From the NCBI GenBank assembly GCA_036229005.1, contig JAZAMN010000020.1:1-64000 (forward strand): 64,000 bases of DNA, read 5' to 3'. This document shows positions 283-29,285 of the stretch, in pieces. The first letter of the stretch is position 1. The number at the start of each line of letters is the position of its first letter. The notes below the pieces were generated by a model. That model saw only the letters and a program-made list of their open reading frames with translations. It was not told the origin of the DNA and searched no databases. The stretch comes from Myxococcota bacterium (lineage in GTDB: Bacteria; Myxococcota_A; UBA796; CAJQPC01). The position numbers and the translations under genes are program-made.

Positions 283-981
283 ATGACCAAGAAAGCAGTC
301 GTCCTGTTCAGTGGCGGACTGGATTCTACCACCTGCCTCGCGATGGCGATCGATCAGGGGTTCGAACCGGTTCCCTTGAGTTTCGACTACCACCAACGCC
401 ACAAGGTCGAACTCGACGCCGCTAGAAGCGTGCTTCAGCACTACGGAATCTCCAAGCACTACATTTTCAACGTCGCGCTATTCAAGGAGATTGGAGGCTC
501 CGCGTTGACAGATGCCAATATCGAGGTGCCGCACCACCAATCTCTCGACGAAGTGAGCACAGGGATCCCAAGCACCTACGTCCCCGCTCGAAATCTGGTG
601 TTCCTTTCCTACGCACTCGGTGTTGCCGAGCAGTCGAAGGCCCATGACATCTTCATCGGCGTCAATGCTGTCGACTACTCCGGCTACCCAGATTGCCGCC
701 CCGAGTTCATCGAAGCCTTTCGGGCCGTCGCCAACCTTGCTGTGAAGGAAGGAGTCGAAGGTGGGGTGTTTCGAATTCACACGCCCCTGATCGCCCTGAC
801 CAAAGCCCAGATCGTCCAGGCTGGCTCCAAGTTGGACGTCCCCTACCAGTTGACCCATAGTTGCTATTCCCCCGTCGATGGACTCGCTTGCGGGCATTGC
901 GACTCTTGCCTCCTCCGCCGAAAGGGATTCGAAGAAGCCGGGCTTCCCGACCCGACCCGCTACAGCCCTACGACCTCGTGA
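283..981 (+). CDS. queC: 7-cyano-7-deazaguanine (preQ0) synthase QueC
   Basis: PP-loop [32 protein letters not shown] and Zn motif SCY...CGHCDSC. ATG at 283 follows AGAGGA. Confidence 0.96.
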
Positions 982-989
982 GGCCAAGG

Positions 990-1628
990 GTGGCCTACAC
1001 AGTTAAAGAGACCTACCTCACACTGCAGGGCGAAGGCACTCACGCAGGGCGAGCGGCCGTCTTCTGTCGGTTCACAGGCTGCAATCTATGGTCGGGTCGT
1101 GAGCGGGACCGAGAGTCCTCCGCCTGCAGTTTCTGTGATACCGATTTCGTGGGTACCGACGGTCCTGGAGGGGGACGGTTCGCCAGCGCTCCAGACCTCG
1201 CAGCTCACATCTACGAAGTGTGGAGGGCCCGCGCATCTGGGGGCAAGCCCTACGTAGTGTTCACAGGCGGGGAACCGCTGCTTCAGTTGGACCAACCTCT
1301 CACCGACGCTTGCAAAGCTCGAGGGATAGAAGTGGGCGTGGAGACCAACGGAACCCGTCCTCTACCGTCAGGAGTGAACTGGGTCTGCGTCAGCCCCAAG
1401 GCAGGTACCAAACTGGTGGTCCGGACTGGACAGGAACTAAAACTAGTCTTCCCACAATCGGGCTTGCGGCCTGAGGACGTTGGAGGACTAGCCTTCGACC
1501 ACTTCTTCCTCCAGCCCATGGATGGGCCTGACCAGGCGGCAAACACGCGCCTGGCCGTGGACTACTGCCTCCGCAACCCAACGTGGCGCCTCTCCCTTCA
1601 GACCCACAAGCTCATCGGGATCCCATAA
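990..1628 (+). CDS. queE: 7-carboxy-7-deazaguanine synthase QueE, Cx14CxxC-type radical SAM
   Basis: TLQGEG, CRFTGC-x14-CSFCDTDF, FTGGEPLLQ, ETNGT, WVCVSPK and WRLSLQTHK. GTG start at 990 (978 is an alternative). Confidence 0.95.
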   Translation: MAYTVKETYLTLQGEGTHAGRAAVFCRFTGCNLWSGRERDRESSACSFCDTDFVGTDGPGGGRFASAPDLAAHIYEVWRARASGGKPYVVFTGGEPLLQLDQPLTDACKARGIEVGVETNGTRPLPSGVNWVCVSPKAGTKLVVRTGQELKLVFPQSGLRPEDVGGLAFDHFFLQPMDGPDQAANTRLAVDYCLRNPTWRLSLQTHKLIGIP

Positions 1629-2776
1629 TGTCGACTGACACGACATCGCCCCTGTTCGGACACCTTCCAGACCACGCGAGCGAGGCCGACCATCGCGCCC
1701 TTGCAATCGATAAGGTTGGAATCAAGGACCTTTCCTATCCCATCCAGGTACTGGACCGCAAAAACCAAGTCCAGCATACGGTGGCAAACGTCAACCTCTA
1801 CGTAAGCCTGCCCCAACACTTCAAGGGCACGCACATGAGCCGGTTCATCGAGATCCTAAATGCCCGACGGGGGGAAATGACGATCCGTAACATGCCGGAG
1901 ATCCTCTCCGAAATCCAGGACCGATTGGAGGCTGAGGACGCCCACATCGAACTAGAGTTCCCCTTCTTCATCTCGAAGAGAGCTCCCGTGAGCGGCGTCG
2001 AATCGCTGATGGAGTACGGGTGTAGCTTCACTGCCTCGAAGCAGGGCCCCCATGTAGACTTCGTGCTCGGCCTTCGGGTACCAGTAAAGAGCCTCTGTCC
2101 TTGTTCAAAGGCAGTCAGCCAATACGGCGCCCACAATCAACGCAGTCTGGTCGACGTCCGAATCCGGTCAAGCGAGTTCGTCTGGATCGAGGACGCTGTC
2201 AGTGCGGTCGAGAGCTGCGCATCCTCCCCCCTCTTCGCTCTGCTCAAGCGCGAGGACGAGAAATTCGTCACCGAGTTGGCATACGACAATCCCAAGTTCG
2301 TCGAGGACCTTGTACGCGACGTAGTCTTGTCCCTTCGAGCTCTGCCAGGCGTTCGGTGGCTCCACGTCGCTGCCGAGAACCAGGAGTCTATCCACAATCA
2401 TTCCGCATACGCGGAGATTGAGTGGAGCCTGGAAGAGGACGTGACAGCGCGTCAGCAGGACCTGGCGCTTCCTTCGGTGGGACAGTCGGACGAGGAGCTT
2501 CCCTTCGGAGTCTGGCTCAAGCGACAGCGACAGGCCCGCGCCTTCAGCCAGCAGGAACTCGCGGGTCACCTGGGAGTGTCCGCGGCCCACCTTAGCCGCG
2601 TCGAAACGGGTGAGAAGAGGCTATCAGCAGACGCCCTGCAGCGGGCCGCGGATCTCTTGGGCCTGGACGGGGACCTCGTCGCGCTGAGGGCTGGGATCGT
2701 CCCACCAGAGCTTCTGGCAGTCATCACCAGGGATCCCGGGGCGTTCCGTCGCTGGGCCAGCAACGCGCCGCAGTAG
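1628..2776 (+). CDS. folE2: GTP cyclohydrolase IB (FolE2) with C-terminal XRE-family HTH
   Basis: IDKVGI, KGTHMSRF, SLCPCSK, GAHNQRS, LLKREDEK, NPKFVEDLVRD and ESIHNHSAYA. These are followed in frame by LKRQRQARAFSQQELAGHLGVSAAHLSRVETG (HTH). ATG overlaps the queE stop (TAATG). Confidence 0.93.
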   Translation: MSTDTTSPLFGHLPDHASEADHRALAIDKVGIKDLSYPIQVLDRKNQVQHTVANVNLYVSLPQHFKGTHMSRFIEILNARRGEMTIRNMPEILSEIQDRLEAEDAHIELEFPFFISKRAPVSGVESLMEYGCSFTASKQGPHVDFVLGLRVPVKSLCPCSKAVSQYGAHNQRSLVDVRIRSSEFVWIEDAVSAVESCASSPLFALLKREDEKFVTELAYDNPKFVEDLVRDVVLSLRALPGVRWLHVAAENQESIHNHSAYAEIEWSLEEDVTARQQDLALPSVGQSDEELPFGVWLKRQRQARAFSQQELAGHLGVSAAHLSRVETGEKRLSADALQRAADLLGLDGDLVALRAGIVPPELLAVITRDPGAFRRWASNAPQ

Positions 2777-2889
2777 GAACCTGCGCAACTGGCGTCGAAA
2801 CCCTGGCCACCTGAAGCTCAGGTGAGCTGTAGTTTTGCCAAACGGCAAGCTCGGTGGTATCAGAGGCGGCCTCACTCCGTCGGGAAACG

Positions 2890-3804
2890 ATGCTCACCCT
2901 CCTCTTGGCCTGTACCGATTCCAAGCGCTTCCCGCCGGCCCCTGGCCTTAGGATGGAGGCGAATGTGGCCAAGCCGCTATTGGAAACTCGAAAGGCATGG
3001 AAGGCTGCACTGCGCGGTTCCGAACCCGTGAGCCGGGCCGGGAAGCTCTACAAGGGTGGCTACTGGACCGCCGCAACCCGCGCCAGGATCGACGCGGCGG
3101 TGCCGATCAAGACACTCGTCGTCTCGGCTGGCCTCGGACTAGTTGATGTTCAGGATTGGGTTCCCTCCTACGCGGCGACGTTCACCCCGGGAACTCCCGA
3201 TTCTATTCCCGGAGCTGGGAACTCCGGCGCGTCGCGGCTGTGGTGGAGCGGGCTGGGCGCAGCTGACCGTTTCAAGCGGGAGGTGACCGGCCAACCTGAC
3301 CCCAGAGTCATCGCGGCGCTGCCAACTCGATACCTAGACGCCGCGCAACCCGCGCTCGCCGACTTCGTCAGAGTGCATGGCCACGAGCGGCTTGCCGTCC
3401 TTGGCGGCGTCGGCGGCAAGTCTCAGTTTCCGGAGTTCGAACAGAGTTGGGTTGCGCTCGACTTGAGAATGGTCCACAAGTTGGGTGGGACCGCGGGCCA
3501 GTTGACGGCACGCGCCCTGCGCTGGGTCTGCGACCAGTTGGACAGTCCGGCCAGCGCCAACCCCGACAACCTTCGCAGGCTCCTGGCCCCCTTGGTCGAC
3601 CCCGATGCTCCTCCGCTCTACCCCAAGCGCAAGAAAAGGACGCCGGAGGAGGTCGAGGCCTGGATCTTGAGGGCGTGGTCCCAAAAGACACCCCCCACAT
3701 CAGCGACTGCGGCACTCCGCCGATTCCGCGCCGAAGGCAATGCCTTCGAGCAGAAGCGATTCAGTTCCATCTACCGTGCCCTTGACGCGCAGAGGGAGGA
3801 CTAG
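2890..3804 (+). CDS. YaaA/DUF328-like protein, putative DpdC
   Basis: CTDSK...AGKLYKGGYW...VVSAGLGLV...VPSYAATF resembles the YaaA-like fold reported for DpdC. It is translationally coupled to the dpdB-dpdA genes. Confidence 0.6.
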   Translation: MLTLLLACTDSKRFPPAPGLRMEANVAKPLLETRKAWKAALRGSEPVSRAGKLYKGGYWTAATRARIDAAVPIKTLVVSAGLGLVDVQDWVPSYAATFTPGTPDSIPGAGNSGASRLWWSGLGAADRFKREVTGQPDPRVIAALPTRYLDAAQPALADFVRVHGHERLAVLGGVGGKSQFPEFEQSWVALDLRMVHKLGGTAGQLTARALRWVCDQLDSPASANPDNLRRLLAPLVDPDAPPLYPKRKKRTPEEVEAWILRAWSQKTPPTSATAALRRFRAEGNAFEQKRFSSIYRALDAQRED

Positions 3805-4931
3805 TGGCAACAAAGTTCGTCGATCGAAGGGCGCTACAGCTTCACCAACACGATGACTACCCGGTCTATGTCTTCTGCCTCGCACCGGCCGAAGTCCTGA
3901 GGGTCGCGGCGATCAGCCGAATCGACCGGAACGACGAAGGTGAACTCATCGGGTATCAGAGGGACGAAGTCAAGCGCCACGTCAACGACATTTTCGAGTA
4001 CGTCGAAGCCGGACCGGTGTTGTTCCCCAATGCGATCATCTTGTCGTTCAACGAAGAAGTCCGGTTCCGAAGAAGTCGCGGCCCCAACACCGACGATGGC
4101 TTCTCCACCTCCGGCGTTCTAGAAGTCCCACTCCCGGACGACGGGGAGCCGAAACCGGCATGGATTGTGGACGGACAACAGCGCGCCCTGGCCTTGAGTC
4201 GAACTAAGAACCAAGCGCTGGCCGTGCCTGTCGTAGCGTTCGTTGGGGACCGCGTTGACATCCAACGCGACCAGTTCCTCCGGATCAACAACACCCGACC
4301 GCTTCCCCGCGGTTTAGTTACGGAACTGCTCCCCCAGGTCGACACGACCCTACCTCGACGGATGGCGGTTCGGAAGTTGCCATCGGCCATTTGCGACCTG
4401 CTGAACAGCGTTCCTGAGAGTCCCTTCCGCGGGCTCATCAAGCGTCCTTCAGTCCGGGGGGACGCTGCCAAGACTGCCGTAATAACCGACACTTCCGTTG
4501 TCGACATGGTTCGGCAGCGCTTCAAGAGCCCAAGTGGCTGTCTCTTCCCCTACTACAACATGGCGTCTGGGGAGACGGATACACAGGCTGTGATGAACCT
4601 CTTGATTGACTACTGGCGGGCGGTAGCAGACACATTCCCGGAAGCATGGGCGCGTCCCACCACCCGGAGTCGCCTGACGCACGGGGCCGGGATCAAGTCC
4701 ATGGGAAATCTGATGGATACCATCATGGGACAAGTCCGTCCTACGGATGATGGATACGACATTGCCATGCTAGGTCTCAGTCGCGTGGCACCAATCTGCC
4801 GTTGGACCTCAGGTCACTGGGAAGGCCTGAACGGAATGCACTGGAAGGAGATCGAGAACACCCCGCGTAGCGTTCGACTTCTCACCAACCATCTGCTGCG
4901 CGAATACCACTTGTCGGCGAACCGTACGTGA
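3804..4931 (+). CDS. dpdB: DGQHR/DndB-like protein DpdB (copy 1)
   Basis: GYQR, FPNAIIL, WIVDGQQR, QFLRINNTRPLP and SRLTHGAG. Overlaps the dpdA start. Confidence 0.88.
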   Translation: MATKFVDRRALQLHQHDDYPVYVFCLAPAEVLRVAAISRIDRNDEGELIGYQRDEVKRHVNDIFEYVEAGPVLFPNAIILSFNEEVRFRRSRGPNTDDGFSTSGVLEVPLPDDGEPKPAWIVDGQQRALALSRTKNQALAVPVVAFVGDRVDIQRDQFLRINNTRPLPRGLVTELLPQVDTTLPRRMAVRKLPSAICDLLNSVPESPFRGLIKRPSVRGDAAKTAVITDTSVVDMVRQRFKSPSGCLFPYYNMASGETDTQAVMNLLIDYWRAVADTFPEAWARPTTRSRLTHGAGIKSMGNLMDTIMGQVRPTDDGYDIAMLGLSRVAPICRWTSGHWEGLNGMHWKEIENTPRSVRLLTNHLLREYHLSANRT

Positions 4932-6184
4932 AGTTCTTCTACGCAGACGCTCTGGACCTTGTGGACCCTGGGTATGACTTCAGAAAGGACAAGTTCTCTC
5001 CCGGCCGTATGCCCCAGCGAGATGACGTCTACGCACATGAACTAATGACCCCCGAGCGACCCTACGATGGCCTCCTGGTCAGCCGCTTCCTGCTCGACGG
5101 AAGAGGTTCTCAGGGCCGCTATACCATGGCGCAGCGGCAGCGCTTTGTTCGCAACGGAGCTCAGCGGTTCCTCCGGTTTCCAGCCGATGGGCGATATGAC
5201 CCGGACAGGTTCCCGATCCTCTGTGACTGTGGAGCCTTCAACTATCGCAACGACCATGAGCCTCCGTACTCCGTAGAGGACATGGTTGAGTTCTACGAAC
5301 TCGGCGGCTTCACGCACGGTGTCTCTGTGGATCACATGATCGGAACCTTCGACCCGATGCTAGACCACCCAACCATTGGAGGCATTCCTGCAGAACTGCA
5401 GAGGCGGTACGACATCACAGTCGCGAATGCCGAACGCCTCCGCAGCATCGTTGTGCGAGACCAACCCCGGTTTACTGCTCTTGGCGTTGCGCAAGGCTGG
5501 AGCCCAGAATCCTATGCTCGGGCGGTGCAGTCCCTGATCGCCATGGGCTACGACTACGTTGCCCTGGGCGGCCTCGTGCCCCTCAAGACGAGAGAAATCT
5601 TGGCTGTTCTCGAGGGCGTAAAGGCGGTAACTGCAGGCAAGACCAAGCTCCACCTCTTCGGCATCACGCGGCTGGAAAACTTCCAGGTATTCCGCGACGC
5701 AGGAGTCGCGAGTTTCGACAGTACATCGCCGCTCCGTCAGGCGTTCAAGGACGCGAAAGACAACTACTACTCAGCTTCCGGCCACTATTCAGCAGTCCGG
5801 GTGCCCCAGGCAGACGTCTACCCAAAACTAGTACGTCGAATCCGAAAGGGAGAGGTCGAGCGCCTCGAGGCCGTTCGACTCGAACGCGCATGCCTTGAGA
5901 GCCTCTACGCGTTGGACCGAGGGGAGGTGAGGGTGTCCGAGGCGATGGAAGCACTCCGCTCGTACGAGGGCCTTTTTGGTGGCAACTCCAAGTGGGCAGC
6001 CGTCAAGCGGACTCTCGAAGACAAGCCCTGGCAATCCTGCGAGTGTCCAATCTGCCGTGAGATTGGCATCGACGTCGTCATTTTCCGAGGAGCGAACCGG
6101 AACCGACGCCGCGGCTTCCACAACCTCCTGTTCACACAAAAGACCCTTCACGAATATCGAACCGGAAGCCCTGCAGATGCCTGA
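4928..6184 (+). CDS. dpdA: DNA 7-deazaguanine transglycosylase DpdA (TGT-like)
   Basis: N-terminal MKFFYAD..D.VDPGYDF...RDDVYAHE. TGT-like motifs DCGAF, SVDH, AQGW, LGGL, HLFG and SFDS. Zn site CECPIC...GFHNL. Confidence 0.93.
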   Translation: MKFFYADALDLVDPGYDFRKDKFSPGRMPQRDDVYAHELMTPERPYDGLLVSRFLLDGRGSQGRYTMAQRQRFVRNGAQRFLRFPADGRYDPDRFPILCDCGAFNYRNDHEPPYSVEDMVEFYELGGFTHGVSVDHMIGTFDPMLDHPTIGGIPAELQRRYDITVANAERLRSIVVRDQPRFTALGVAQGWSPESYARAVQSLIAMGYDYVALGGLVPLKTREILAVLEGVKAVTAGKTKLHLFGITRLENFQVFRDAGVASFDSTSPLRQAFKDAKDNYYSASGHYSAVRVPQADVYPKLVRRIRKGEVERLEAVRLERACLESLYALDRGEVRVSEAMEALRSYEGLFGGNSKWAAVKRTLEDKPWQSCECPICREIGIDVVIFRGANRNRRRGFHNLLFTQKTLHEYRTGSPADA

Positions 6185-7295
6185 AACCATCACCCTTCCC
6201 GCCCTGGCTCTCACCCAAAGCCCTGGACGCCGAATCTTCGCCTTCGGCGTGGACGGCAAAGACGTACCCCGGTTCGCCGAGGTGTTTCGTGCCTCCAGGA
6301 AGGACGGCGGCACACTGTTCGGGTACCAGCGCCACGAAGTCCGTCGGCACATCGAGGAGATCCGGCGCTACGTTGAAAGTGAGCGTCCAATGATCCCCAA
6401 CGCAGTGGTACTGGCGTTCTCGCCCAAGGTCCGGTTCGAGGCACTGGACGGCTACCCGGAAGGGCCATCGACCATAGGAAAGCTCCATATCCCTGTCTCC
6501 GACAACGCCGACGAGGCCCCGACTGGCTGGATCGTTGACGGCCAACAGCGCCTGACGGCAATCCGGGAGGCCAACGTCGACCAGTTCAAGATGTTCGCGG
6601 TCGGCTTCATCGCAGCTGACGAAGGTGAACAGCGAGAGCAGTTTATTCTTGTCAATAACACTCGCCCCCTGCCCAAGTCGCTCATCTATGAACTGCTCCC
6701 CGGCGTGGACGCGGAGCTACCACCAGCCTTGGCGAAGCGGCGAATGCCGACACTGCTCGTCGACCTACTGAACAACACCCCCGGATCGCCGCTTTACCAC
6801 GTTGTGCGCCAGCACACGAACCCGTCGGGCCGCCTCCGCGACAATTCGTTGATCAAGATGCTGGAGAATAGCCTTAGCGACGGGATGCTATACCGCTACC
6901 GCCTGACAGAGCCAGCAGAGACTCAACTGGAAGGCATGGCCCGACTCCTCATGGAATACTGGTCTGCTGTGAAGCAGGTCTGGGGGGACATCTGGGAGCT
7001 CAAGCCACGGCAGTCCCGCCTACTTCATGGTGCAGGAGTGGTGAGCCTCGGGTTCCTCATGGACGCCATCGCTGGGAAGCATCAGGAAAAGGGATGGCCC
7101 ACCAGCGCGCTCTTTGCCGAAGAACTCGAGAAGATGAAGCCTCATTGCCGATGGGCAGCCGGGTATTGGGAGTTCGGGCCCTCCACGAAACTCCAATGGA
7201 ATGAGGTCCAAAACACCTCAAAGGACGTCCAGATGCTGGCGAATCACTTGATTCGGATCTACCTGCGCTTGCCTGGCGAAGCGCCGCCTCATTGA
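6177..7295 (+). CDS. dpdB: DGQHR/DndB-like protein DpdB (copy 2)
   Basis: GYQRHEV, IPNAVVL, WIVDGQQR, QFILVNNTRPLP and SRLLHGAG. ATG at 6177 overlaps the dpdA end. Confidence 0.88.
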   Translation: MPETITLPALALTQSPGRRIFAFGVDGKDVPRFAEVFRASRKDGGTLFGYQRHEVRRHIEEIRRYVESERPMIPNAVVLAFSPKVRFEALDGYPEGPSTIGKLHIPVSDNADEAPTGWIVDGQQRLTAIREANVDQFKMFAVGFIAADEGEQREQFILVNNTRPLPKSLIYELLPGVDAELPPALAKRRMPTLLVDLLNNTPGSPLYHVVRQHTNPSGRLRDNSLIKMLENSLSDGMLYRYRLTEPAETQLEGMARLLMEYWSAVKQVWGDIWELKPRQSRLLHGAGVVSLGFLMDAIAGKHQEKGWPTSALFAEELEKMKPHCRWAAGYWEFGPSTKLQWNEVQNTSKDVQMLANHLIRIYLRLPGEAPPH

Positions 7296-7637
7296 TCCGA
7301 GCACTTCGACACTGACGCTCGGCGCGCCACTGTTCAACGGCGGACGCCACCGACGGATCGAGCCCCGAGCACCACGGCTTCGACTACCCCAGCCTGAGGC
7401 AGTTTCGGTGAGACCGCGCCCTGTATGTTTTGGACCCGGGTAGCCGAATTCTCGGCTACAAGCGCACTCGACGACCGAGTCCCGTTCGCATTTCGTTGCG
7501 CGACCTCTCAAGCGCCCCAAGGACTCTCCCAGATCATCTTCGGCCACCCTCGTGTAGTTTCCCACCTCGGATCTCCGGCAGTTTTCTCAAGCTGGTCGAT
7601 TCCCTAACATCAGTCCGCATCATGAGGGCTGATCGGA

Positions 7638-16323: not shown

Positions 16324-16394
16324 CCTATCGAGGATCGTCTTTGGCGTTGCAGGGTGCCCATTGGAAGAACGTTCGCCGCCCCACTCTGTCACCG

Positions 16395-17105
16395 TCATAG
16401 ACGAATCGAGAAGCGGCCCAAGGCCCCACGTTCTTCAAGCCAGTCTCGGACCTGGTCGTCCACGTCGGCAAGGGTAGCAGTCCCCCTCGCGACCTTCAAA
16501 AGAAACTCTCCGAGATTGGAGCGGCCCGACGACAGCTCCGCTAGCAGAGCGTCGCGTGCCTCGATGCCGCGCTTCAGAGCTTCCAGCGCCGACTCGTCCG
16601 GAGGAAAGGCCAGTCCCAAGCCGACGCCTTCTAGTGACACCTGCTGCATGCGGGCTGCGAGGTCGGATTGGGAGTCCATCTGATGGAGCGCCTTCCCGAG
16701 TTCGCCGATGGTGTTGAATTCGTCGGCGAGTCGCGCTTTCCAGCCACGTTGCAGCACACTCGATGTGTCTCGGACAAGGTCGGCAACTGCGCCAAGAACT
16801 GTGCCGGAGCCAAGGAGTCTCTCCGACGTGCTCTCCTCGGCCAGCGAGCCGCCCTTGGTTCGGAGAATCTTTAGCTTTCGCCCAAGCTCCTGCAGATCAT
16901 GGGTGTCGAGAGTGGAACGAACCTCGACAACTACAGGCTCCAGAGCCTCGCAGGTCTCGATGGCGTCACGGTGCCTCTCCAGGGCTTCCCCAGCGGATGT
17001 CAGTCCGTCACCGTAGATGCGACGCCGAACTGCGGCTCGGACACGATCTTCGGCCAGGGCCTCACGAAGGGCGTCTAGCGACGAGATTTCGGTCGACTCG
17101 GACAT
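16395..17105 (-). CDS. Hypothetical helical protein, positional DpdI candidate
   Basis: ATG at 17105 overlaps the dpdH stop. It is the last gene of the dpdE-F-G-H run, where dpdI sits in canonical clusters. C-terminus FLLKVARGTATLADVDDQVRDWL. Confidence 0.55.
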   Translation of the reverse strand: MSESTEISSLDALREALAEDRVRAAVRRRIYGDGLTSAGEALERHRDAIETCEALEPVVVEVRSTLDTHDLQELGRKLKILRTKGGSLAEESTSERLLGSGTVLGAVADLVRDTSSVLQRGWKARLADEFNTIGELGKALHQMDSQSDLAARMQQVSLEGVGLGLAFPPDESALEALKRGIEARDALLAELSSGRSNLGEFLLKVARGTATLADVDDQVRDWLEERGALGRFSIRL

Positions 17106-20100: not shown

Positions 20101-20386
20101 GCGTCTTCCACTGGAACTCCAGCCAGCGGATTAGATGCGACTTCCCGGAGCCCGGCTCCCCCTCGACAACACAGAACAGGTGGCTGTGGTCTGGGCCGGT
20201 CAATGCGTCCAACAGGCCATCTTCGCTGTCTTCACTCAAGAGGCCTGCGTTAACCCCCGCCGTCGTGAAGCCTTGGATGGGTGAGTGAACCGCCATGAAG
20301 ATGGCTCGCGTTCCTTCCAACGCTTCGGTTCTAAGCACAGCGGCCGCATCACGCGCCGTCCAGCACGCGTAGTTGCGAAAGGTCAC
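17105..20386 (-). CDS. dpdH: P-loop ATPase, DpdH-like
   Basis: Walker A GEPGSGKSHLIRWL, Walker B LVLLLEDIT, CLTCPHRDPCH and FYPLS. Downstream of dpdG. Confidence 0.75.
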   Translation of the reverse strand: MTFRNYACWTARDAAAVLRTEALEGTRAIFMAVHSPIQGFTTAGVNAGLLSEDSEDGLLDALTGPDHSHLFCVVEGEPGSGKSHLIRWLEFQWKTRRPDDLVLPVPRSNGSLEGVLREMRSGLPSSYQGLFAGLGKVHDTTLEGRARDFHSKLANSLSPDYFAGEAPIHAEWAAKYQLNRLVGHHLVLGEWSAPNRILETLAGGSERNSRVESFTIEDVHELALKLRAVRDRSVGPKAIQASRKFQKEADELGNLLDSGRPPAELEAEAEKVAPMLFRLREALDARFNAVVQDLVGVGRDGLTRAFRGLRAQLARENRRLVLLLEDITSFQGVDSQLLDVLIAKSSTEGSESLCDLLSVVGITTDFFNRSMKSYGNLRERIALHIHLGDGTSGEVDTGLALGSAAGRQEFAANYLRAIRAGVERIQNWDEAGGGSVPNVCLTCPHRDPCHRAFGATHSGVGFYPLSPRAIDRIFDALHDPQGTMGLRTPRGMVQHVLSPLLFHPERLEQGEFPPSNLEGEYLPKERGFLLGPAARVPDLLETPGDQARVRRLIAWWASQNPGAQTEHDADGNLSFAGIPRETFEAFGLPWLGDASLAVEAREQNSYDQAQSRTERGAEEETEESTDEASRARSTKRRSRNEKSSNRPARVSTGKMSDLRTDLRNWATVGGTKHGEQWSLLLMEVLDGLPWQVMGVPLWVRQTLFTKSSVALEGTRTTDVRHFVVPREGWVAHGLDAWLALRAKDGDAEFHRRQFARFQRRLKRLVLAHIEERMLKTPAGEMWNPAGTAAQVLLTRAWLRGQVSVDAPIADQWEAILGPDAGGALSSTGRTEGWGELVRRTGAYQVRFREMLRAWIQLTRGAGTDDRGIVDAGSIAAAFVSMAHRLEPDLPPKNPDLPQALLIWSSIADIGRLTRRVVPALPDHEFKRIRRVLEGLESRCSGRSLPQYLRDVQQVVSTLHEQDPKCPNHLVSRWYDVLSKLKDKQMGEGDDLLASLDEFVFDFTDTDELEVLEAADPTKRLAWVIKAPAADLAFLGQQVSAAADTVDALWGYVETLLKDAGDDASSAPEDLKAAGTKIRDAAKAIMTSLDLEEG

Positions 20387-21273
20387 GGCGCCCCTCCATC
20401 GAGAAGTACGACTCCGACGAACGATTTCACCGGGCTCGTCGCGTCGCCGACGAGACTGAGTGCATCAGGGGCGTCTGCTCGGGACACGAGACGCAGGACG
20501 CCGTCGTCGTGGAGGTCGAGCAGGGCCTCGCTCACCACTCGGCTTACCCACCCTGGGCGCAACCGATACCCCATCTTCGATGAGATTTCCTCCGACACAG
20601 CTCCGTGGTCTAGGTAGGGCATCCTGGCGGCCAGGAGGGACATGAACGTGCTCGCCGGTATCTCCCCAGTAGTACCGCTCTCGCTGCGCAGCTTCGGCAA
20701 CTCCCGCAGGATGCGTTCGGCGGGCTGTGGGAAGAAGGTCGGTAGTGCCGGCCCACCTTCGAATCCCAATCCGAGCGCAAGCATCCACGCCCGCCAGGGG
20801 GCAATCTTCGTTGGATTGAAGAGTCGCGTTTCGATGTCTTCGCCGGTGCGAAGAACTTCATCGATTCGGTCAGCGATTTGCTTGTCAGACTGCTCTGCGA
20901 GCCAGGAGGTCCCGTCGGTGCGCTCGGTCTCTAGCACCACGCAAGCGTACGCCCTCATCATGACAATGTCGGCGTCCGAGGGCTGATCTCTGAGCATACC
21001 GTGGGCAAGATCTGAGAACGACGGAAGACTGTCTGGCAGAACCTCTACCTGCAGCGCGATCTCGCTACCATCGTCCCGAACCACGCCGAGGCTCCGAGCG
21101 GCACCAATGGTCTGCCGCACTTGGACGAGCGACTTCTCGTTTTCGCGGAACGATGCGGGCATCATCCAGGTCTCGACTTCATCTCTGCGGGCTTGTCCTC
21201 CGAGCGCATCGAGCAGTCGACACAGGGACCACACGCGCTCAGGCCGGCCTTGGGTGTCTGAAAGCAGGCTCAT
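20383..21273 (-). CDS. dpdG: DpdG-like protein
   Basis: W..W...LGLG, RMPYLDHG and SEALLDLHDDGVLRL..RADA. Lies between the dpdF-like and dpdH-like genes with 4-nt overlaps. Confidence 0.7.
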   Translation of the reverse strand: MSLLSDTQGRPERVWSLCRLLDALGGQARRDEVETWMMPASFRENEKSLVQVRQTIGAARSLGVVRDDGSEIALQVEVLPDSLPSFSDLAHGMLRDQPSDADIVMMRAYACVVLETERTDGTSWLAEQSDKQIADRIDEVLRTGEDIETRLFNPTKIAPWRAWMLALGLGFEGGPALPTFFPQPAERILRELPKLRSESGTTGEIPASTFMSLLAARMPYLDHGAVSEEISSKMGYRLRPGWVSRVVSEALLDLHDDGVLRLVSRADAPDALSLVGDATSPVKSFVGVVLLDGGAP

Positions 21274-23855
21274 GAGGGGACTCCAAGCTGGTCTACGATG
21301 CTGTCGCTTCGCAGCGGCGTGTGTGGTGACGCAACCGAGCTAATCGGCCGGCCACCGATGTTCAGATCGAATGGGACCACGAAAACGAGGCCTGTCTCGG
21401 GGGTGGTCAGCACCTGTCGTCGCACTGCCTCATACGCTCGCGTGCGATGCGTCGCACTCATAGATGCATCCAGGAAGAGCGCGCTGGGGACCGAGAGCGC
21501 CGACCATTTGCCCTTCACAATCGCCTCGGCCTCGAGCACCAAGCCGGCACACCTGGTTCGACCCGCGAGCACCCCGGCTGTCCTTGTTGCCAATGCCTCT
21601 GGAACGATGAACTGGGCGATTCCCACTTGCGCTAGGCGCTCAACCAAGCTGTCCAGGCCGACGTATTCGTCATCTCGTGTGAACAACAGCCTTGTGCCTT
21701 GAAATGCCGTCTTTGGCACGTCTGGCGAGTTCCAGCGGGCTCGTCCACCTTGATGCATCGCGTTGCGAGGAGGTTCGGCCTGGAGCTTTCGGCACGCCAC
21801 ACAGCGGCCGCAAGCCTCTGGAATCTCACTGCTCGTCTCGACCTGTTCGAATAGCGCGACAAGAAGACAGGGGTATTCGTTGAGGGCGTCCAGGTTGTCT
21901 TCGTCGTCGCTCTGGATCAGCCCGACAGATCGGATGAGTGAAAGAAGTGCGCCAACCCGGCTTCTAGCCGCGGTCACTTCTAGGGCTCGCTTGGCCAGAT
22001 ACTCGCGTAGAGCGGCATCCGCGGAGGTTTCCAGGTCGAGCAGCCTAGGGTCGTTCACGCGCACCGCGCACCGATCGCGCTCCTCCTCCATCGCAAGCAC
22101 ATCCAAGGCGCCATACCGCTGCAGTTGGACAAGAAGTGCCTTGTTCCAGCGGCGATGGTGCTGCCCTGTCCGAGGTCCTAGACGCTCGAGGTGAGCATCG
22201 AGTTTTGCTCGAACGAGGAAGCCATTGACGCTCGGTTCAACCCGGCCCGCGCCACGCGCTTCTTCAATCATTGAGAGCCATCGTTCCTTCGCCTTCTCTG
22301 GCGTGAGCACGCCTCCTGTGCCCATTCGAACTGCCAGCCCCTCGTCCTCCTGTGCCGAAAGAACGACTGCGATGGCCTGGTGGCCATCTCGACCACCACG
22401 GCCGATCTCTTGGTACAGGCGCGAGGCGTCCTCCGGCAGGCAGGCGTGAAGCACGGCCCGGACATCTGACTTGTCGATCCCCATGCCAAAGGCCGAAGTC
22501 GCGACCACCAAGTCTATCTTGCCGTCCTGCCACCCCTCGATGGCGATAGTGCGCTCGTCGGGGCCTGTGTCGCCGGTGAACACCGCCACCCGTTCGTGCC
22601 CCCGAGTCCGAAGGATCTCGCCGAGCGCCTCGGCATCTGCCACCTCAGTCGTGTAGATGATCGCGGGCCTGGGAAGTACATCGACGGTCGCCAGAACGGC
22701 TTCCCGACGAGTCGCGGATCTCCCGAAATGCTGAAGGCACAGGTCGAACTCTGTGCGAGGCGACTGCGCAGCAACCTCAAGGAGTTCACCGCCAGTGCTG
22801 TACTGCTGCTGAAGAAGCTGTTTGGCATCGGCATCGACAGTGGCCGACAGCAGGATGGTTCGGAGTCCCTCATTCTTGCGCTTGAGGTCGCGGAGCAATC
22901 CGGGCAGTCGCTGGAAGTCGGGCCGAAAGCTTCGACCCCAGCTGTGCACGATGTGGACCTCATCGACGAACACCGCTGCCAGCCTTCCACGTTCTGCCAG
23001 TGGGCGGGACTCGACGCTTCCAGCGGCGCGGCAGAGTGTGTCCCGGGCGGTTCCCAACGCCGCCTCGGGAGACGTAAGGAGGATCGGGACTTCGCCGCGA
23101 AGCAGTGAAATGAAGAGGTCGTCTCTCTCCGTAGGGGTCATCGAACCCGTGAGCGCGCGGCTGCCTTCGAGGCCTGGCATGCCGCGGAGCGTGAGGAGGT
23201 GGGCTTCGGCAAGAGCTAGAGTGGGTACGACCACCAAGAGCCAGGGCTTCTCCGTCTCAGCCGTGCTCTCGTCCCACCAGCGGGAACCCAGCTGAAACAG
23301 CAGGCTCTTCCCAGTACCAGTGGGCATCGTGGCCAAAAGGCACTCTCCAGGGGGCATGGTGCAGAGTGCGCGGGTTGCAGACTTCTGGGCGCAGCTTCGA
23401 TAGGTGGCGTACTCGGAGCATCGAAGGAGGACGCCGTCTGGCGGTTCCTCCTTCACTACTCGCCTTGGGGTGGGGTCGACAGGAAGGGCGCGATCGAGCT
23501 GCTCTTTAAGAGCACTTGGTAGTTCCCGGAATGCGGCCGGGTCCGTGAGGCGCACCAAGACGTCGCTTGCCGATCGCGTTGCCCTGATTCCGAATCGGCG
23601 GAGTACGACGTCGTCGATGCTCCCTGGAACCCACTCGGGGACTTTCATGGAGCCGCCATGGAGGCGCGCCAGCTCTCTCAACCACGCAGCCCGGTCCGCC
23701 CCGGTACTCAATGCGAACCGCTGCCAGGCGCGGCCGATTGCCACTTCGAGCCAGCGTCCAGCGCCGTCTGGCGCGGCAGCCTCGGTTGTCCGGCTGTCTT
23801 CCACCGCCGCCAGAAGGTCGGCGAGGGAGGTGAATGTGTGCCAATCGCTACGCAC
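21270..23855 (-). CDS. dpdF: RecQ-like helicase DpdF
   Basis: MPTGTGKS, VDEVHIVHSWGRSFRPDF, LLSAT, ATSAFGMGIDKSDVR, YQEIGRGGRDG and CGRCVAC. Confidence 0.85.
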   Translation of the reverse strand: MRSDWHTFTSLADLLAAVEDSRTTEAAAPDGAGRWLEVAIGRAWQRFALSTGADRAAWLRELARLHGGSMKVPEWVPGSIDDVVLRRFGIRATRSASDVLVRLTDPAAFRELPSALKEQLDRALPVDPTPRRVVKEEPPDGVLLRCSEYATYRSCAQKSATRALCTMPPGECLLATMPTGTGKSLLFQLGSRWWDESTAETEKPWLLVVVPTLALAEAHLLTLRGMPGLEGSRALTGSMTPTERDDLFISLLRGEVPILLTSPEAALGTARDTLCRAAGSVESRPLAERGRLAAVFVDEVHIVHSWGRSFRPDFQRLPGLLRDLKRKNEGLRTILLSATVDADAKQLLQQQYSTGGELLEVAAQSPRTEFDLCLQHFGRSATRREAVLATVDVLPRPAIIYTTEVADAEALGEILRTRGHERVAVFTGDTGPDERTIAIEGWQDGKIDLVVATSAFGMGIDKSDVRAVLHACLPEDASRLYQEIGRGGRDGHQAIAVVLSAQEDEGLAVRMGTGGVLTPEKAKERWLSMIEEARGAGRVEPSVNGFLVRAKLDAHLERLGPRTGQHHRRWNKALLVQLQRYGALDVLAMEEERDRCAVRVNDPRLLDLETSADAALREYLAKRALEVTAARSRVGALLSLIRSVGLIQSDDEDNLDALNEYPCLLVALFEQVETSSEIPEACGRCVACRKLQAEPPRNAMHQGGRARWNSPDVPKTAFQGTRLLFTRDDEYVGLDSLVERLAQVGIAQFIVPEALATRTAGVLAGRTRCAGLVLEAEAIVKGKWSALSVPSALFLDASMSATHRTRAYEAVRRQVLTTPETGLVFVVPFDLNIGGRPISSVASPHTPLRSDSIVDQLGVPS

Positions 23856-23859
23856 GCCG

Positions 23860-26800
23860 TCAGTCCCCGATCACCACGCAGACGCCCTCGAGGACCAGGT
23901 GGGCCTCACGCACGCTTCGCAGGATTCGTTCTCGTAGGTTGAGCTCCTCTTCTGCGTCTGCCTGGGTCTCCACGCCACGAGCGATTTGTCCGTGGTAATA
24001 CCCGATTTCGGTCCGCATCGATTCCTCGAGTTCCTCTGCCGCTTCCTCTTTCAAAGGGGCGAGGTTGGCCTCGAGCGCCGCATGCCCCGTCGCGACCGCT
24101 GCTCGAACCGCCGCCCACAGGGTCGCGGGCTCGTAGGTCCCGATCACCTGGTCGACATCCAGTGACCTGTCTCCCTTGTCTCGCTCGTAGATTCGGGTGA
24201 GTTCCTGTCGAGTCTTGAAGTCGCGGACAACCTCCGGCTCGCTGCCGTCCATCTTGACCTCAACGCACGCAGTGTCAGCGGATGGCCACAAGAACCGATG
24301 TGCGCGAGTCTTGAGCCCGGCGGGTATGGCGTGGTCTGGCCAATGCTCTCTACGCAGCAGGTTGCTTCCGAGGCAGACGACGAACACGCGTCCGCGCAGG
24401 TCCCTGCCGAGCCTTCGCAGCATCACAGCGGCACGGCCGCGGGAGCTGATTGGGAGGGCCGCCAGTGCAGCGTCTACCAGTCGATGCCCAGGACCAAAGA
24501 ACTGGAGGGACTCGTCCCGTAGTGCTTGACTTCGGTTGAACGTGCCGTAGGGGGTAGACCCGTCGCGATTCCCGTAGCCTCGGAGCGGCTCCGACAGCCC
24601 CTCCGCTGTCCATTGGAAGCTGATCGTCCCACGGGATCGGTCACGACGGTTGCGTACTCCGATGCTGCCGAGCCAGTGGCGCACCATACGCTCCTCCTCA
24701 TCGGAGGCCGGCTCCTCGAGCATCTCCGCAAGCTCCTGCGCTTGCTTCAGTTGTTCCCGGGATGAGTCCAACGAGAGCTCGAAGTCCTCGTCTACATCTG
24801 CCAGCGTGGCCTCCACCTCGGACTGCATTGTGTCCGCAAGTTGCGCCAGCGGAACGCCTCGACCAAAGCCCTCCCGTAGCGACCGCTGCAAACGAGGCAG
24901 GACGAACTCGAGACCACCCACCGAGGCCGTGAACACGCCGAATACCTTCTCATGGAGATCTTGTAGCGCTTGCTCGAAAGTGCTTGGACCGCGAACCAGT
25001 ATTGAGCGTACAGGGCGGGAGTCTTCTCTCCCCATTCGGTCGAGTCGCCCGATTCGCTGCTCGATCCTGCCGACAGAGAAGGGCGTGTCGAGGTGGACAA
25101 CCCAGTCGGCGACCTGGAAGTTGCGTCCTTCCCCGCCAAGCTCATCGCTTACGAGCACTCGAAGGTCAGGACTCCTTTGGAATCGAAGGGCGATCCTCTC
25201 GAGTTCGTCGTGGTCCTGACCGTGGTGGAAGGTGTCCACACCCAGTGAAGGCTCGAGCTTGGCGAGCAATGCGGCAAACTCTTCCACGATGGTTCGTCTC
25301 TGCGCGAAAACCAGCACCTTCGCCGCTCGCTCACTCGCAAGCGCTTCCGCAAGGTGCTGGCAGAGCGCGCGGTGCCGCGCGTTGCCCAGACCCTCTGCGA
25401 GTTCCCACTCGCGCACGAGGCCGATTCCCTGTTCCAACCACTCGAGCTCGCCCGGGAGGGGCGGCGCGCAGTAGAGAAGCTGATCGCGAAGCAACCCCTC
25501 CTCGTCGGGGCCCGGGTCAGAACTCAGTGACTCGGCGATAGCTTCCGGGTCCAGTTCGCTTGTTTGACCTATACCACCCAGTCTCTGCTCAAGGGTGGCG
25601 AGCGCTGAGCTGGCGCCGGCTGTCACACCTTCGACGATCGCGATCCGCAGCCAGGCCTGTGCCGAGCTGTAGGCAGTGGGTACGTCCAAGCGCTCGAGGT
25701 GTTCGACCACCAGAATCTCGGGAGGGCTCGGTCGGTATTCAAGGTGCTGCAGTTCGCGGGGTGCGAAGGCTGTACCGAGGTACCCGAGGGTTCGTCGACG
25801 AGTTCGGAGGATTCGGTGGTCGATTCGGTAGTTCTCCTGGACGTAGGCGACAAGCTCGTCGAGTGCTTGAGTCTCGCCATCCAAGGCACGCTTCAAGAAT
25901 GCGGCGACCTCGGGTTCCTCGGGGAGGGCGTCCTGCCAGTCCTCGACGATGAACTCGATGTCGTCTGCGTCTGGCTCCCCATCCTCCGACTCCTGACGTG
26001 CCGCTGCGAGGATGTCCGTCGTCGCGTTCAACACTCCCCAAACTTGTCGACGCTCGTCCATTCGGTGCCGAAGCAGTTCGACGTCGCTGGGCGAGTAGCT
26101 TTCGGGCGCCACCAGACTGAGCAGACCAGCGAGACCGCGTAATTCGCGTTTGGAGGGGGTTGCGGAGAGGGCGAGGAAGCCGGGACTGCGTGCAGCCAAT
26201 GCCTGAAGCGTCCCAAAGAGTGGATGACCTGGCGGGAGTTGGTGTGCTTCATCGACAACGACGAGGTCCCAGAGTCGGGTTGTGATCGCCTCCCGCAACT
26301 CAGCATTCTCGAGGAGGGCGGTGGAGGAGACGATCAATCGGCTCGCTGAAATCACGCGTCTCCGCTCTCTTGCCGAGGCAACCTGCAACTGTCCCGCAGA
26401 GACATGAGCGAATGCTCGGCCGCCAAAACGGAGGTACAGCTCGAACAGCCACTGGCGACTCATCGAGCCTGGTGCGACGACAAGGACTCTCAACTCCGGG
26501 TCTGATGAGAGGAGCGCCTGGATGACCAGACCGGCCTCAATGGTCTTTCCCAAACCAACCTCATCTGCCAGCACGAAGCGAGGAACACGGTCCTGGAGGA
26601 TGCGCTGCGCAGCGTGGAGCTGATGAGCCAGTGGCCGGATGCGTGCTCCTCGCAACGTAGGCAGGCCCTCGGACGCCTCGAACCATTGAGCCCAAGTCGC
26701 CGCTAGCCCCGCGCGCGCAAAAAAATCGTGCGGCTCAGTCCACCGAAGGCACTCAAGGAAACTCACGACATCCGAATTGACTGGCGGCAACGGTACCAAA

Positions 26801-27108
26801 TGGCTCTCAGGAACGCTCCTCTCGGACGTGCCGTCAGAAATCAACGCGTGGCGGCAGGATGTCTCCGACCGATACACCTCATTGATCTCGAATTGAGTTC
26901 GGTCGTAGGACTTGAGACAGACCTTCTGCCCACGGTAGAGCGGAAATTGGGCAAGAGCCTGGAGTTGTACCCGAAGATTCGCACCGCCGTGAAGTGCCTC
27001 GACCTCGGCGACGCCTCCAGGCCCACAGTGGACCAGACGGACAGGCCCCAGCGCATCGTTGTTTCGCAGTCTAAGCAGATTGCCTGGAACCACCGGGTAC
27101 ACCCCCAT
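23860..27108 (-). CDS. dpdE: SNF2/RapA-like helicase DpdE
   Basis: PLAHQ, LADEVGLGKTIEAG, VVDEAH, LSATP, GGEGRNFQ and EQRIGRLDR. First gene of the minus-strand dpd operon. Confidence 0.85.
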   Translation of the reverse strand: MGVYPVVPGNLLRLRNNDALGPVRLVHCGPGGVAEVEALHGGANLRVQLQALAQFPLYRGQKVCLKSYDRTQFEINEVYRSETSCRHALISDGTSERSVPESHLVPLPPVNSDVVSFLECLRWTEPHDFFARAGLAATWAQWFEASEGLPTLRGARIRPLAHQLHAAQRILQDRVPRFVLADEVGLGKTIEAGLVIQALLSSDPELRVLVVAPGSMSRQWLFELYLRFGGRAFAHVSAGQLQVASARERRRVISASRLIVSSTALLENAELREAITTRLWDLVVVDEAHQLPPGHPLFGTLQALAARSPGFLALSATPSKRELRGLAGLLSLVAPESYSPSDVELLRHRMDERRQVWGVLNATTDILAAARQESEDGEPDADDIEFIVEDWQDALPEEPEVAAFLKRALDGETQALDELVAYVQENYRIDHRILRTRRRTLGYLGTAFAPRELQHLEYRPSPPEILVVEHLERLDVPTAYSSAQAWLRIAIVEGVTAGASSALATLEQRLGGIGQTSELDPEAIAESLSSDPGPDEEGLLRDQLLYCAPPLPGELEWLEQGIGLVREWELAEGLGNARHRALCQHLAEALASERAAKVLVFAQRRTIVEEFAALLAKLEPSLGVDTFHHGQDHDELERIALRFQRSPDLRVLVSDELGGEGRNFQVADWVVHLDTPFSVGRIEQRIGRLDRMGREDSRPVRSILVRGPSTFEQALQDLHEKVFGVFTASVGGLEFVLPRLQRSLREGFGRGVPLAQLADTMQSEVEATLADVDEDFELSLDSSREQLKQAQELAEMLEEPASDEEERMVRHWLGSIGVRNRRDRSRGTISFQWTAEGLSEPLRGYGNRDGSTPYGTFNRSQALRDESLQFFGPGHRLVDAALAALPISSRGRAAVMLRRLGRDLRGRVFVVCLGSNLLRREHWPDHAIPAGLKTRAHRFLWPSADTACVEVKMDGSEPEVVRDFKTRQELTRIYERDKGDRSLDVDQVIGTYEPATLWAAVRAAVATGHAALEANLAPLKEEAAEELEESMRTEIGYYHGQIARGVETQADAEEELNLRERILRSVREAHLVLEGVCVVIGD

Positions 27109-28458: not shown

Positions 28459-29285
28459 GCTGCCCACCCCAGGAGCTCGTCGAGGTGCCCAGCCCAACCG
28501 CAGCTGTTGCGGTGATTGCAGTAGGCCCGGACCTGCTTGTGGGGTTGGATGAAGAAGTAGACGTCGTACCGCTGGCAGCTCGGACAGAGGATGCCGGTGG
28601 CCCTGTCGCCGGAGATCTGCGCGCCAAGCTCCTGAGCTGCTGCCTCGCGCGTCGTGGGGTCTGTCCGCAGCCTTCGTGCCCGCAGGCGGTCTGCTGCTGG
28701 TCCAGGCAACCGAACGCTTCGACGGCAAGGGCGGGGCTTCTGCTCGAGGGGCTTGAGGTCGAGCGAGAGTAGCCGGCCACCCGGGTCGTGCTCGATGAAG
28801 CGGTAGTCAGCGATCCGATCGGGGGGTGCTCCAGGCAGGAAGTACATGCGTGAGGGGTCTTTGCACTTCGGGTCAGGCTCGCCGGCGGCCAGCTCGACGG
28901 CGGCGGGCCAGGCCCGGACCTTCCAGTCCCTGCCTCGGATGGGGTCAGCCAAGGGGAGCACCAGGCGGAACTTGGGGTGCTCGAGGGTATGGCCCCAGGT
29001 GGTGTAGACCAGCCAGGGCCAGTCCAGCCAGGGGACGACGGCTGCGTCGATGGGGGTGCCGTCGTCGTAGTCCCAGACGAGGAGGTGGACCCAAGCGACT
29101 CCTACGGCCCCGCGAGAGGCGCCCTCGTAGAAGCTGACGGGAGACCAGAGAGGCAGGCGGTCCTTGGCCTGACCGCACAGGGGCTGGCGCAGGCGCTCGC
29201 GAAGGCCTGTCCAGGTCCAGCGTTCTCGGCGTCCCCGCCGGTCGCGGACCGACCGATAGAGCGTCACCGAAAACTGCTGGGTCAT
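28455..29285 (-). CDS. Putative AEP-type primase with C-terminal Zn finger
   Basis: LVWDYDDG, YTTWGH...PKFRLVLPL..PI, DP...DPSRMYFLP and C-terminal CPSC...CNHRNSC. Coupled to VapE. Confidence 0.7.
   Translation of the reverse strand: MTQQFSVTLYRSVRDRRGRRERWTWTGLRERLRQPLCGQAKDRLPLWSPVSFYEGASRGAVGVAWVHLLVWDYDDGTPIDAAVVPWLDWPWLVYTTWGHTLEHPKFRLVLPLADPIRGRDWKVRAWPAAVELAAGEPDPKCKDPSRMYFLPGAPPDRIADYRFIEHDPGGRLLSLDLKPLEQKPRPCRRSVRLPGPAADRLRARRLRTDPTTREAAAQELGAQISGDRATGILCPSCQRYDVYFFIQPHKQVRAYCNHRNSCGWAGHLDELLGWAA

Follow-up and report, generated by a model that had tools for sequence, protein, structure and literature searches.

A Dpd-Type Island with a Predicted Dna2-Like Nuclease-Helicase in Place of DpdK and DpdD

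Introduction

The enzyme that does the cutting in Dpd, the 7-deazaguanine-based restriction-modification system typified by DpdA-K of Salmonella Montevideo, is treated as an open question in one account of the system (PMC5699537), and a later study gives the roles of DpdD-K as unknown (PMC10164549). Here, we analyze an island that poses this question in a particular form. It lies at positions 283..27108 of the first 64 kilobases (kb) of a contig (JAZAMN010000020.1, here C20) from a Myxococcota assembly (GCA_036229005.1, here G000), and this whole 64-kb stretch, whose base 1 is the contig end, is called the window below. The island carries a broad set of Dpd genes with neither dpdK nor dpdD, and a nuclease gene that stands immediately before an unusually long dpdJ. 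What, then, would destroy the unmarked DNA? With a probability that we put at about 80%, the island is a complete Dpd-type restriction-modification system that likely sets a 7-deazaguanine mark on the DNA of its host and likely destroys unmarked incoming DNA by means of a predicted Dna2-like nuclease-helicase in place of DpdK and DpdD. The variant departs from the canonical form in DpdK, DpdD and the cysteines of the DUF1998 region, yet most likely works as a Dpd system, and it is a Dpd subtype undescribed in the literature searched.

Results

The Nuclease and DpdJ Genes

The nuclease (755 amino acids [aa]) consists of a Cas4/Dna2-type PD-(D/E)XK domain with four cysteines (residues 1-270), an RNase H-like domain (335-575) and a stalk with a beta-barrel (590-750). 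In its structural model (predicted local distance difference test [pLDDT] 90.8) the first 270 residues match the folds of Cas4, Exo5, AdnA and Dna2. E55, D127, K146, C241, C244 and C250 are invariant in 50/50 of the nucleases compared, D144 and C18 are kept in 49/50, and the pattern of one plus three cysteines around the PD-(D/E)XK core suggests an iron-sulfur (Fe-S) cluster. The second domain resembles 3'-5' exonucleases of the RNase H fold (Z up to 12.0, root-mean-square deviation [rmsd] 3.1, 170 residues aligned); its D346, E422 and D542, candidate exonuclease residues, occur in 50/50 variant proteins and are absent from most fused relatives. Fold matches to Sen1, Setx and Ighmbp2 are probably due to the C-terminal barrel and helices of the model. 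The TIGR03491 model scores 38 bits, under its cut-off of 97.

The adjoining dpdJ encodes a superfamily 1B (SF1B) Upf1-like helicase (~1-500), a DpdJ/YprA superfamily 2 (SF2) helicase (~700-1400) and an oligonucleotide-binding (OB)/DUF1998 canopy. Both motors have intact motifs, those of the SF1B motor (Walker A at 69-76, DEASQ at 196-200 and the later ones) being conserved, and C1947, C2102, C2106 and C2109 are invariant in 53/53 proteins. The model of the tail (1400-2142, pLDDT 91.1) matches DrmB (Z 13.1, rmsd 5.2, 354 aligned) and MrfA (Z 11.5, rmsd 4.4, 249 aligned), and no nuclease fold is among its top matches. BLAST revealed no similarity to DpdD hidden within either the nuclease or DpdJ.

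In Dna2, a two-helix stalk holds the beta-barrel between the nuclease and the SF1 motor (PMC4716839). The nuclease gene of the island ends past such a stalk and the next gene begins with an intact SF1B motor; because the stalk and barrel thus close one gene and the motor domains open the next, the nuclease and the SF1 head of DpdJ are predicted to form a single, split nuclease-helicase of the Dna2/TM0106 kind. Among 45 relatives of at least 850 aa (44 from the best 150 of a HMMER search, plus protein P0101), 39 have this SF1 domain fused behind the nuclease; these fused forms were absent from a word-index search and were recovered by the full HMMER search. A predicted complex of nuclease residues 322-755 with DpdJ residues 1-500 scored 0.67, against 0.00 for the best of three controls, on a scale whose mark is reached by 116 of 157 solved pairs and by 2 of 215 mismatched ones. 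The runs share at least 75% of their contacts, with a partner pLDDT of at least 76, and the predicted contacts lay the last helix (736-750) and the stalk (592-604) of the nuclease on the SF1 domain.

One protein, P0168, unites nuclease, SF1 and DpdJ in a chain of 3312 aa; it is sister to the variant DpdJ clade described below.

Recurrence of the Variant and Exclusion of DpdK and DpdD

The word-index search returned 131 nuclease homologues. In GTDB genomes there are 74 nuclease loci, from Myxococcota, Alphaproteobacteria, Gammaproteobacteria, Acidobacteriota and others, and all of the carriers found are bacteria. The gene order proposed for such a search in the initial annotation does recur: in 54 of the 74 loci an entire nuclease gene precedes that of a DpdJ of more than 2000 aa, with an overlap of 4 nucleotides (nt) in 46 of these 54, and the remaining 20 are mostly fragmented or ended by contig edges. 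Whole-genome searches covered the genomes of 50 of the 74 loci, those with longer contigs. The island stretches of these genomes contained DpdF in 46 of the 50, DpdG in 46, DpdH in 48, DpdI in 47, DpdC in 46, the upstream dpdB (dpdB1) product in 41, QueC in 43, QueE in 39, QueD in 41 and FolE2 in 9. A close DpdE was present in 17/50, by a query that missed two canonical DpdE at its threshold; the island stretches agree (15-16/50).

That DpdK and DpdD are missing had been claimed for the window, and the claim extends well beyond it. DpdK was not found in G000 and passed the cut-off in 0/50 of the nuclease-bearing genomes, which gave eight weak, unlinked matches of the phospholipase D (PLD) type; three genomes that do have K were picked up by the same model, at 1e-13 to 1e-60. 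An Agrobacterium DpdD query, positive in the control genomes G241 and G595, found DpdD in 0/50 and not in G000, where tblastn with three DpdD-type proteins was blank and PADLOC gave no DpdD match; the island stretches likewise count K 0 and D 0. The family NF041069, tried as a DpdD model, proved to be unrelated.

The left flank of the island is unseen because the window begins at base 1 of C20, and a canonical island with its dpdK and dpdD hidden in that unassembled flank would agree with this contig edge and with a genome that is 94% complete. In canonical islands, however, K and D come directly after dpdJ, a place taken here by dpdI after 71 nt, and neither gene was found in 50/50 related genomes, four of which are titled complete; we hold this explanation to be highly improbable. 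A search for the flank itself found no repeat of the first 400 nt of C20 elsewhere in G000; one contig from each of the runs X1 (possibly the source sample) and X2 overruns an end of the searched stretch, and neither supplies letters before base 1. The end of contig C69, a candidate for the left flank, has an attachment-site (att)-like copy and a nitrilase/DRT-like fragment with no dpd match. X1 contigs are nearly identical to the island letter for letter, and the junction of the nuclease gene and dpdJ is spanned by a contig of another study that is 95% identical.

Outside the GTDB set, the nuclease occurs on 4 plasmid records, DpdK on 7 and DpdD on 7, and neither K nor D shares a record with the nuclease. 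Among 80 metagenome loci picked by DpdA, the nuclease is present in 3 (one of them, L142, looks identical to L022) and K and/or D in 16, and never are both arms found together. Random sampling for canonical controls yielded new DpdA genomes at 3/400 and 1/400, and these four have the nuclease in 0, K in 3 and D in 2. From these counts and those in GTDB, it follows that the variant is a minority yet widespread form. The same sets bear on the idea that the nuclease-SF1 pair is an add-on or a repair factor, with restriction coming from DpdE-J alone or from an unrecognized gene. Fused TM0106-like relatives are indeed widespread, and the restriction nuclease of canonical Dpd is described as unidentified in two studies (PMC5699537; PMC10164549); but the mutual exclusion with DpdK in all sets examined, the lack of a second nuclease family that recurs in the 10 kb around this one, and a DpdE not found in 33/50 genomes make this idea very unlikely.

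Other arm configurations were encountered. In genome G373 (L092:13868-19827) a third arm type combines a variant-like E-F-G-H-I set with a 1773-aa DpdJ, which keeps the C-terminal cysteines, and a divergent DpdK, with no DpdD. Locus L195:3745-11249 has a canonical-type arm in which a 1740-aa DpdJ reading frame has DpdD as its immediate neighbor and a dpdK of its own is missing; this DpdJ is possibly a J-K fusion. Where no dpdA lies upstream, we considered that the arm might be tied to a different modification system and rejected this, dpdA being present on the far side.

Pairing of the Marking and Cutting Arms

DpdA is present in 49/50 of the nuclease-bearing genomes, and in 47 of these 49 it shares a contig with the nuclease, at most 38 kb away; in the exception, G025, the nuclease is followed only by a 303-aa fragment of DpdJ (L037). 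In a DpdJ-core tree built by a quick method from 41 rows (the window, 26 selected variant and 12 canonical proteins, G373 and P0168), the variant forms one side of a branch with support 99. In a 77-row DpdA tree, made by the same kind of quick method and accompanied by long-branch warnings, the variant label has to change 10 times, starred branches forcing at least 6 of these changes, and shuffled labels need 19.4 on average. Thus the variant DpdJ is one clade and DpdA does not track it. The DpdA of the window is closest (61%) to that of G241, which has a canonical J-K-D arm, and its DpdJ is closest to those of L006/L007, in which DpdA is 45-46% identical and dpdB is single. The most closely matched mixed pair, variant L191 and canonical L207, has a 6.8-kb cassette in common whose DNA is 89% identical, the two DpdA agreeing at 98%, and in other mixed pairs DpdA is 82-86% identical; metagenome contigs may be chimeric, and one pair (L025/L084) consists of an isolate genome and a complete plasmid.

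These pairings suggest either that the cutting arm has no matched sequence reader of its own or that many DpdA share one motif. They also speak to a Hachiman-like explanation, in which the marking is real and the arm serves abortive infection or damage sensing, its motors sensing phage replication intermediates and releasing the nuclease regardless of the mark. It would fit that the arm pairs with unrelated DpdA lineages, that Dna2 requires a free single-stranded end (PMC4716839) and that one genome in 50 has the nuclease without DpdA; since DpdA is otherwise always kept and the arm of that one genome is broken, we judge the explanation unlikely. To return to restriction of unmarked DNA, the methyltransferase of BREX sets the specificity of both marking and defense (PMC11842806). 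By analogy, Dpd may be a platform of two arms, in which one marking cassette is served by either of two unrelated cutting arms, PLD-type DpdK plus DpdD or a Dna2-like resection machine, restriction specificity comes from DpdA/B as it does from BrxX in BREX, and the variant arm is a multi-motor assembly of Dna2, RecQ-like (DpdF) and YprA parts that chews unmarked DNA. A pairing of Dna2 with a RecQ motor is known (PMC5393063) and offers a parallel for this arm; as a whole, we advance the platform idea tentatively, as possible rather than probable.

The Island and Its Host

Fourteen intact open genes fill 98% of the span (table 1) in the order queC-queE-folE2::HTH-dpdC-dpdB-dpdA-dpdB-nuclease-dpdJ, facing dpdI-H-G-F-E. 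Library scans recovered all of the genes named in the initial annotation, and the one it had bracketed is a divergent dpdI, which matches nothing in any library scanned and is recognized only profile to profile. The near-complete translational coupling that it reported is also borne out: 9 of 12 same-strand pairs overlap by 1-11 nt and one more is spaced by 4 nt, the wider gaps being 110 nt (folE2-dpdC) and 342 nt (dpdB2-nuclease). DpdE, F, H and J fall under their NCBIfam cut-offs. The dpdC frame opens at a GTG (2854), and its likely start is the ATG at 2887. No Rfam match, tRNA or meaningful repeat was found, nor a sigma-70 promoter in the 342-nt gap.

Table 1. Genes of the island, with positions in the window and the basis of each assignment.
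Gene	Position	Strand	Basis
queC, preQ0 synthase	283..981	+	TIGR00364 218.9 bits, over cut-off
queE, CDG synthase (radical SAM)	978..1628	+	TIGR04508 341 bits, over cut-off
folE2 (GTP cyclohydrolase IB) with C-terminal XRE-type helix-turn-helix (HTH)	1628..2776	+	NF010200 282 bits; Pfam HTH_31 at 293-352
dpdC	2887..3804	+	PADLOC DpdC E 5.6e-40; 29% to Enterobacter DpdC
dpdB1, upstream DGQHR/ParB-like paralogue	3804..4931	+	NF041060 401 bits; DGQQR intact
dpdA, DNA-guanine transglycosylase	4928..6184	+	NF041059 507 bits (cut-off 200)
dpdB2, downstream DpdB	6174..7295	+	NF041060 (NCBIfam DpdB, cut-off 300) 446 bits; 45% to Enterobacter DpdB
755-aa nuclease, PD-(D/E)XK/TM0106-like	7638..9905	+	library match, conserved residues, model, fold matches
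dpdJ, 2142 aa	9895..16323	+	PADLOC PDLC02895 (2112 positions), residues 2-2135
dpdI, divergent, 237 aa	16395..17108	-	hhalign to canonical DpdI 98.3%, E 2.6e-14
dpdH, P-loop ATPase	17105..20386	-	PADLOC DpdH E 5e-158
dpdG	20383..21273	-	NF041064 82.4 bits (cut-off 80)
dpdF, RecQ-like helicase	21270..23855	-	PADLOC DpdF E 3e-129; recQ models
dpdE, SNF2/RapA-like helicase	23860..27108	-	PADLOC DpdE E 5.6e-80; NF041062 390 bits, below cut-off 500

The host assembly comprises 6.4 Mb in 74 contigs with ~70% guanine plus cytosine (GC). The island has a GC of 0.59-0.64 and a third-position GC (GC3) of 0.66-0.76, against mostly 0.8-0.97 in sampled host genes, and DpdA occurs in only 3/400 other genomes sampled from the phylum and in 0/11 from the host family. 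The low GC and GC3, together with this rarity, argue that the island was acquired horizontally.

The catalytic residues of the transglycosylase are kept. DpdA aligns to PDB 7UI4 (E 7e-109) and keeps D100, F104, D135, D264 and the segment GGLVPL, so that the equivalents of Salmonella D95/D130/D256 and the GGhsbb motif are present, with Q189 at the position of H181; for the matching residues of the S. Montevideo enzyme, roles in catalysis and preQ0 selection have been demonstrated or put forward (PMC10164549). DGQQR is kept in both DpdB. A 50-row tree divides DpdB into an upstream and a downstream clade (support 100), and canonical DpdB that occur as a single copy fall in the latter.

The preQ0 synthesis genes claimed for the island are present as queC, queE and folE2, which is three quarters of the set; queD is lacking. 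The precursor supply of the island is thus incomplete, since queD is located elsewhere in the host, in a housekeeping context on contig C4. The island queC is the sole queC of the assembly, and none was found in 4/4 genomes of the same family. As for the claim of a distinct subtype, what stands is the recurrence, the different nuclease/helicase effector and the single DpdJ clade, whereas its own precursor supply falls away as a subtype trait, and so does the dpdB-dpdA-dpdB arrangement: the que plus doubled-dpdB cassette also stands beside canonical J-K-D on an Agrobacterium vitis plasmid, in G241 and G595 and at the metagenome loci L152, L171, L193 and L198. According to PMC11888242, about 27% of dpd islands bear genes for preQ0 synthesis, and additional copies of dpdB are frequent.

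Several observations concern this cassette alone. The FolE2::XRE-type HTH fusion is also found on the host chromosome (C50:21546-22688, 52% to the island copy), at L022 and in G241. In G357 (L089-L090) a complete que plus dpdC-B-A-B cassette has no restriction arm within 20 kb on either side, and nuclease, DpdK and DpdD were not found genome-wide. Alphaproteobacterial islands (L025, L027, L029, L032, L042 and others) have recurrent inserts between queC and the nuclease, namely a VUT/YhhQ transporter, a pair of membrane protein and HAD-type hydrolase, and a third DGQHR gene.

A footprint of the marking on the host genome was also considered. CAGCTG, the PvuII site and the target of Salmonella DpdA, has 319 occurrences in G000 against 4915 expected, a ~15-fold depletion that affects no other CxGCxG hexamer to this degree. 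As a DpdA footprint this avoidance was rejected: the same-family genomes G100 and G236, which have no DpdA, are equally depleted (CAGCTG versus CAGCAG, 135 vs 2513 and 163 vs 2329, against 339 vs 8146 in G000). Nor is CAGCTG depleted in most Dpd carriers, in the island itself or in the congener G256. A search of the host, made with no positive control, found no PvuII-like enzyme, and two N4/N6 methyltransferases over cut-off turned up in it.

The Neighboring Element

Adjoining the island is a phage-satellite-like element (27196-39240) with host-like GC3, whose genes include a primase, a VapE-type helicase, a sigma-like protein, a BRO/Ant antirepressor and a tyrosine integrase (37778-39115), and which stops where it reaches the 5' end of a gene for a radical SAM protein (39242). 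Within it, on the minus strand, a low-GC cargo of two genes (34920-37180), one matching PADLOC BnzB (Bunzi) at E 1.9e-48 and the other PDC-M09A-like, is a probable second defense system. Four copies of the ~33 initial codons of the same radical SAM gene lie on C69 of G000 (36855, 39971, 50838 and 55206) between cargo blocks carrying heavy-metal efflux, an AbiE pair, a 2-oxoglutarate (2OG) oxygenase and the nitrilase/DRT-like fragment; they are likely a tandem integration array at a radical SAM att site. Similar short copies occur in G256 and G151.

Discussion

How might such an island work? Judging by gene identity, FolE2, QueE and QueC of the island, with QueD from the host or from the unseen flank, would make preQ0. 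If these proteins act like their homologues reconstituted from S. Montevideo, DpdA and the DpdB ATPase(s) would then put preQ0 in the place of guanine at a sequence motif, and DpdC would turn the preQ0 into ADG. The nuclease and DpdJ products, if they bind as predicted, would together restore a single Fe-S nuclease-helicase that is held to the DpdJ motor, and DpdF, G, H and I, with DpdE as an option, may load this complex on unmarked DNA. There, the SF2 and SF1B motors would unwind the DNA and pass single strands to the nuclease, giving a processive degradation unlike the single cut of a PLD enzyme.

Several points weigh against this proposal. The 50 genomes were picked by their nuclease, are mutually related and are often drafts, and the sequence to the left of the window is unassembled. 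In 61 of the 80 DpdA loci from metagenomes, neither arm lies within 10 kb. Loss of DpdD needs no nuclease, because G373 has K with neither D nor nuclease, and the statement that the nuclease replaces DpdD means position and exclusion only, because DpdD has no Pfam family or known role. Dna2 superposes on model residues 3-734 (Z 10.3, 300 aligned) with an rmsd of 24, and because of this rmsd the match covers the domains and not their arrangement. Finally, the complex score is support and not proof, because split halves of Upf1/Dna2-like proteins readily pass by their likeness to solved structures.

The variant nonetheless bears on how Dpd systems in general are to be understood. In a form that has a single obvious nuclease but no K and D, and often no E, the core in common shrinks to DpdF, G, H, I and J. 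This suggests DpdK as the nuclease of canonical systems and leaves one active site as the target for mutation. Because marking arms and cutting arms re-pair freely, the question of specificity becomes a testable one. Moreover, variant islands may score as restriction-less in searches seeded with Salmonella proteins: a GATOR-GC analysis names Archangium and Agrobacterium among genera with no restriction operon, and an Archangium genome in the present set carries the variant arm in full (L009, L097), a comparison that holds at genus level. A PADLOC model of 2112 positions already covers the long DpdJ; for the nuclease or for the architecture, we found neither a model nor, in the literature searched by full text, a description; figures of other Dpd papers may show such an island.

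Comparison with Known Systems

BREX type I and DISARM have parts in common with the island, namely DpdE/BrxHII, DpdHI/BrxC and the YprA helicase (Bell et al., PMC12458937), and the DpdJ tail of the island folds like DrmB. In contrast to these systems, the predicted mark of the island is a base exchange and not a methylation, and no match to PglZ, BrxL or DrmC was seen. The BRIGADE systems combine 7-deazaguanine genes with a YprA helicase as the island does; in them the PLD nuclease is occasionally swapped for a PD-(D/E)XK one, and Type I often lies near a large DNA2-like fusion (Bell et al. 2025, PMC12458937). They are described there from halophilic archaea only, usually with two YprA and at least one ARMADA-like gene, whereas the island is bacterial and has one YprA-type gene. 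A relative of the island in Brevundimonas diminuta 3F5N (contig of L059) bears the label "Dpd-like helicase" in Table S1 of that study, the same label as its canonical Escherichia coli example.

With Dna2 and the TM0106-like fusions, the island matches in domain order (nuclease, stalk, beta-barrel, SF1B 1A/2A; PMC4716839) and in the one plus three cysteines around the PD-(D/E)XK core. It differs from them in a chain that is split after the stalk helix and ahead of motor domain 1A, in having no N-terminal OB fold, in its extra RNase H-like domain and in the fusion of the motor half to a YprA helicase.

Canonical Dpd (S. Montevideo DpdA-K; NZ_CP086409.1, CP146243.1) is the closest relative in content: DpdA, B, C and E-J homologues are shared, and que genes with a second dpdB occur there too. 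Of what marks a canonical island, DpdA, DpdB/C and DpdE-J are found here, and a DpdK after dpdJ, a DpdD and a DpdJ free of the DUF1998 cysteine cluster are not. The island adds the predicted Fe-S PD-(D/E)XK nuclease, DpdE is optional in the variant (17/50), and its DpdJ of 2142 aa carries the SF1B helicase in front, whereas canonical DpdJ has ~1480-1520 aa. Lastly, the island DpdJ retains four C-terminal cysteines, and the CxxC is missing in 3/3 canonical tails; canonical Dpd is described as having lost the DUF1998 cysteines, which persist only in those Dpd-like systems that branch more deeply (Bell et al., 10.1101/2025.09.15.676423; PMC12458937).

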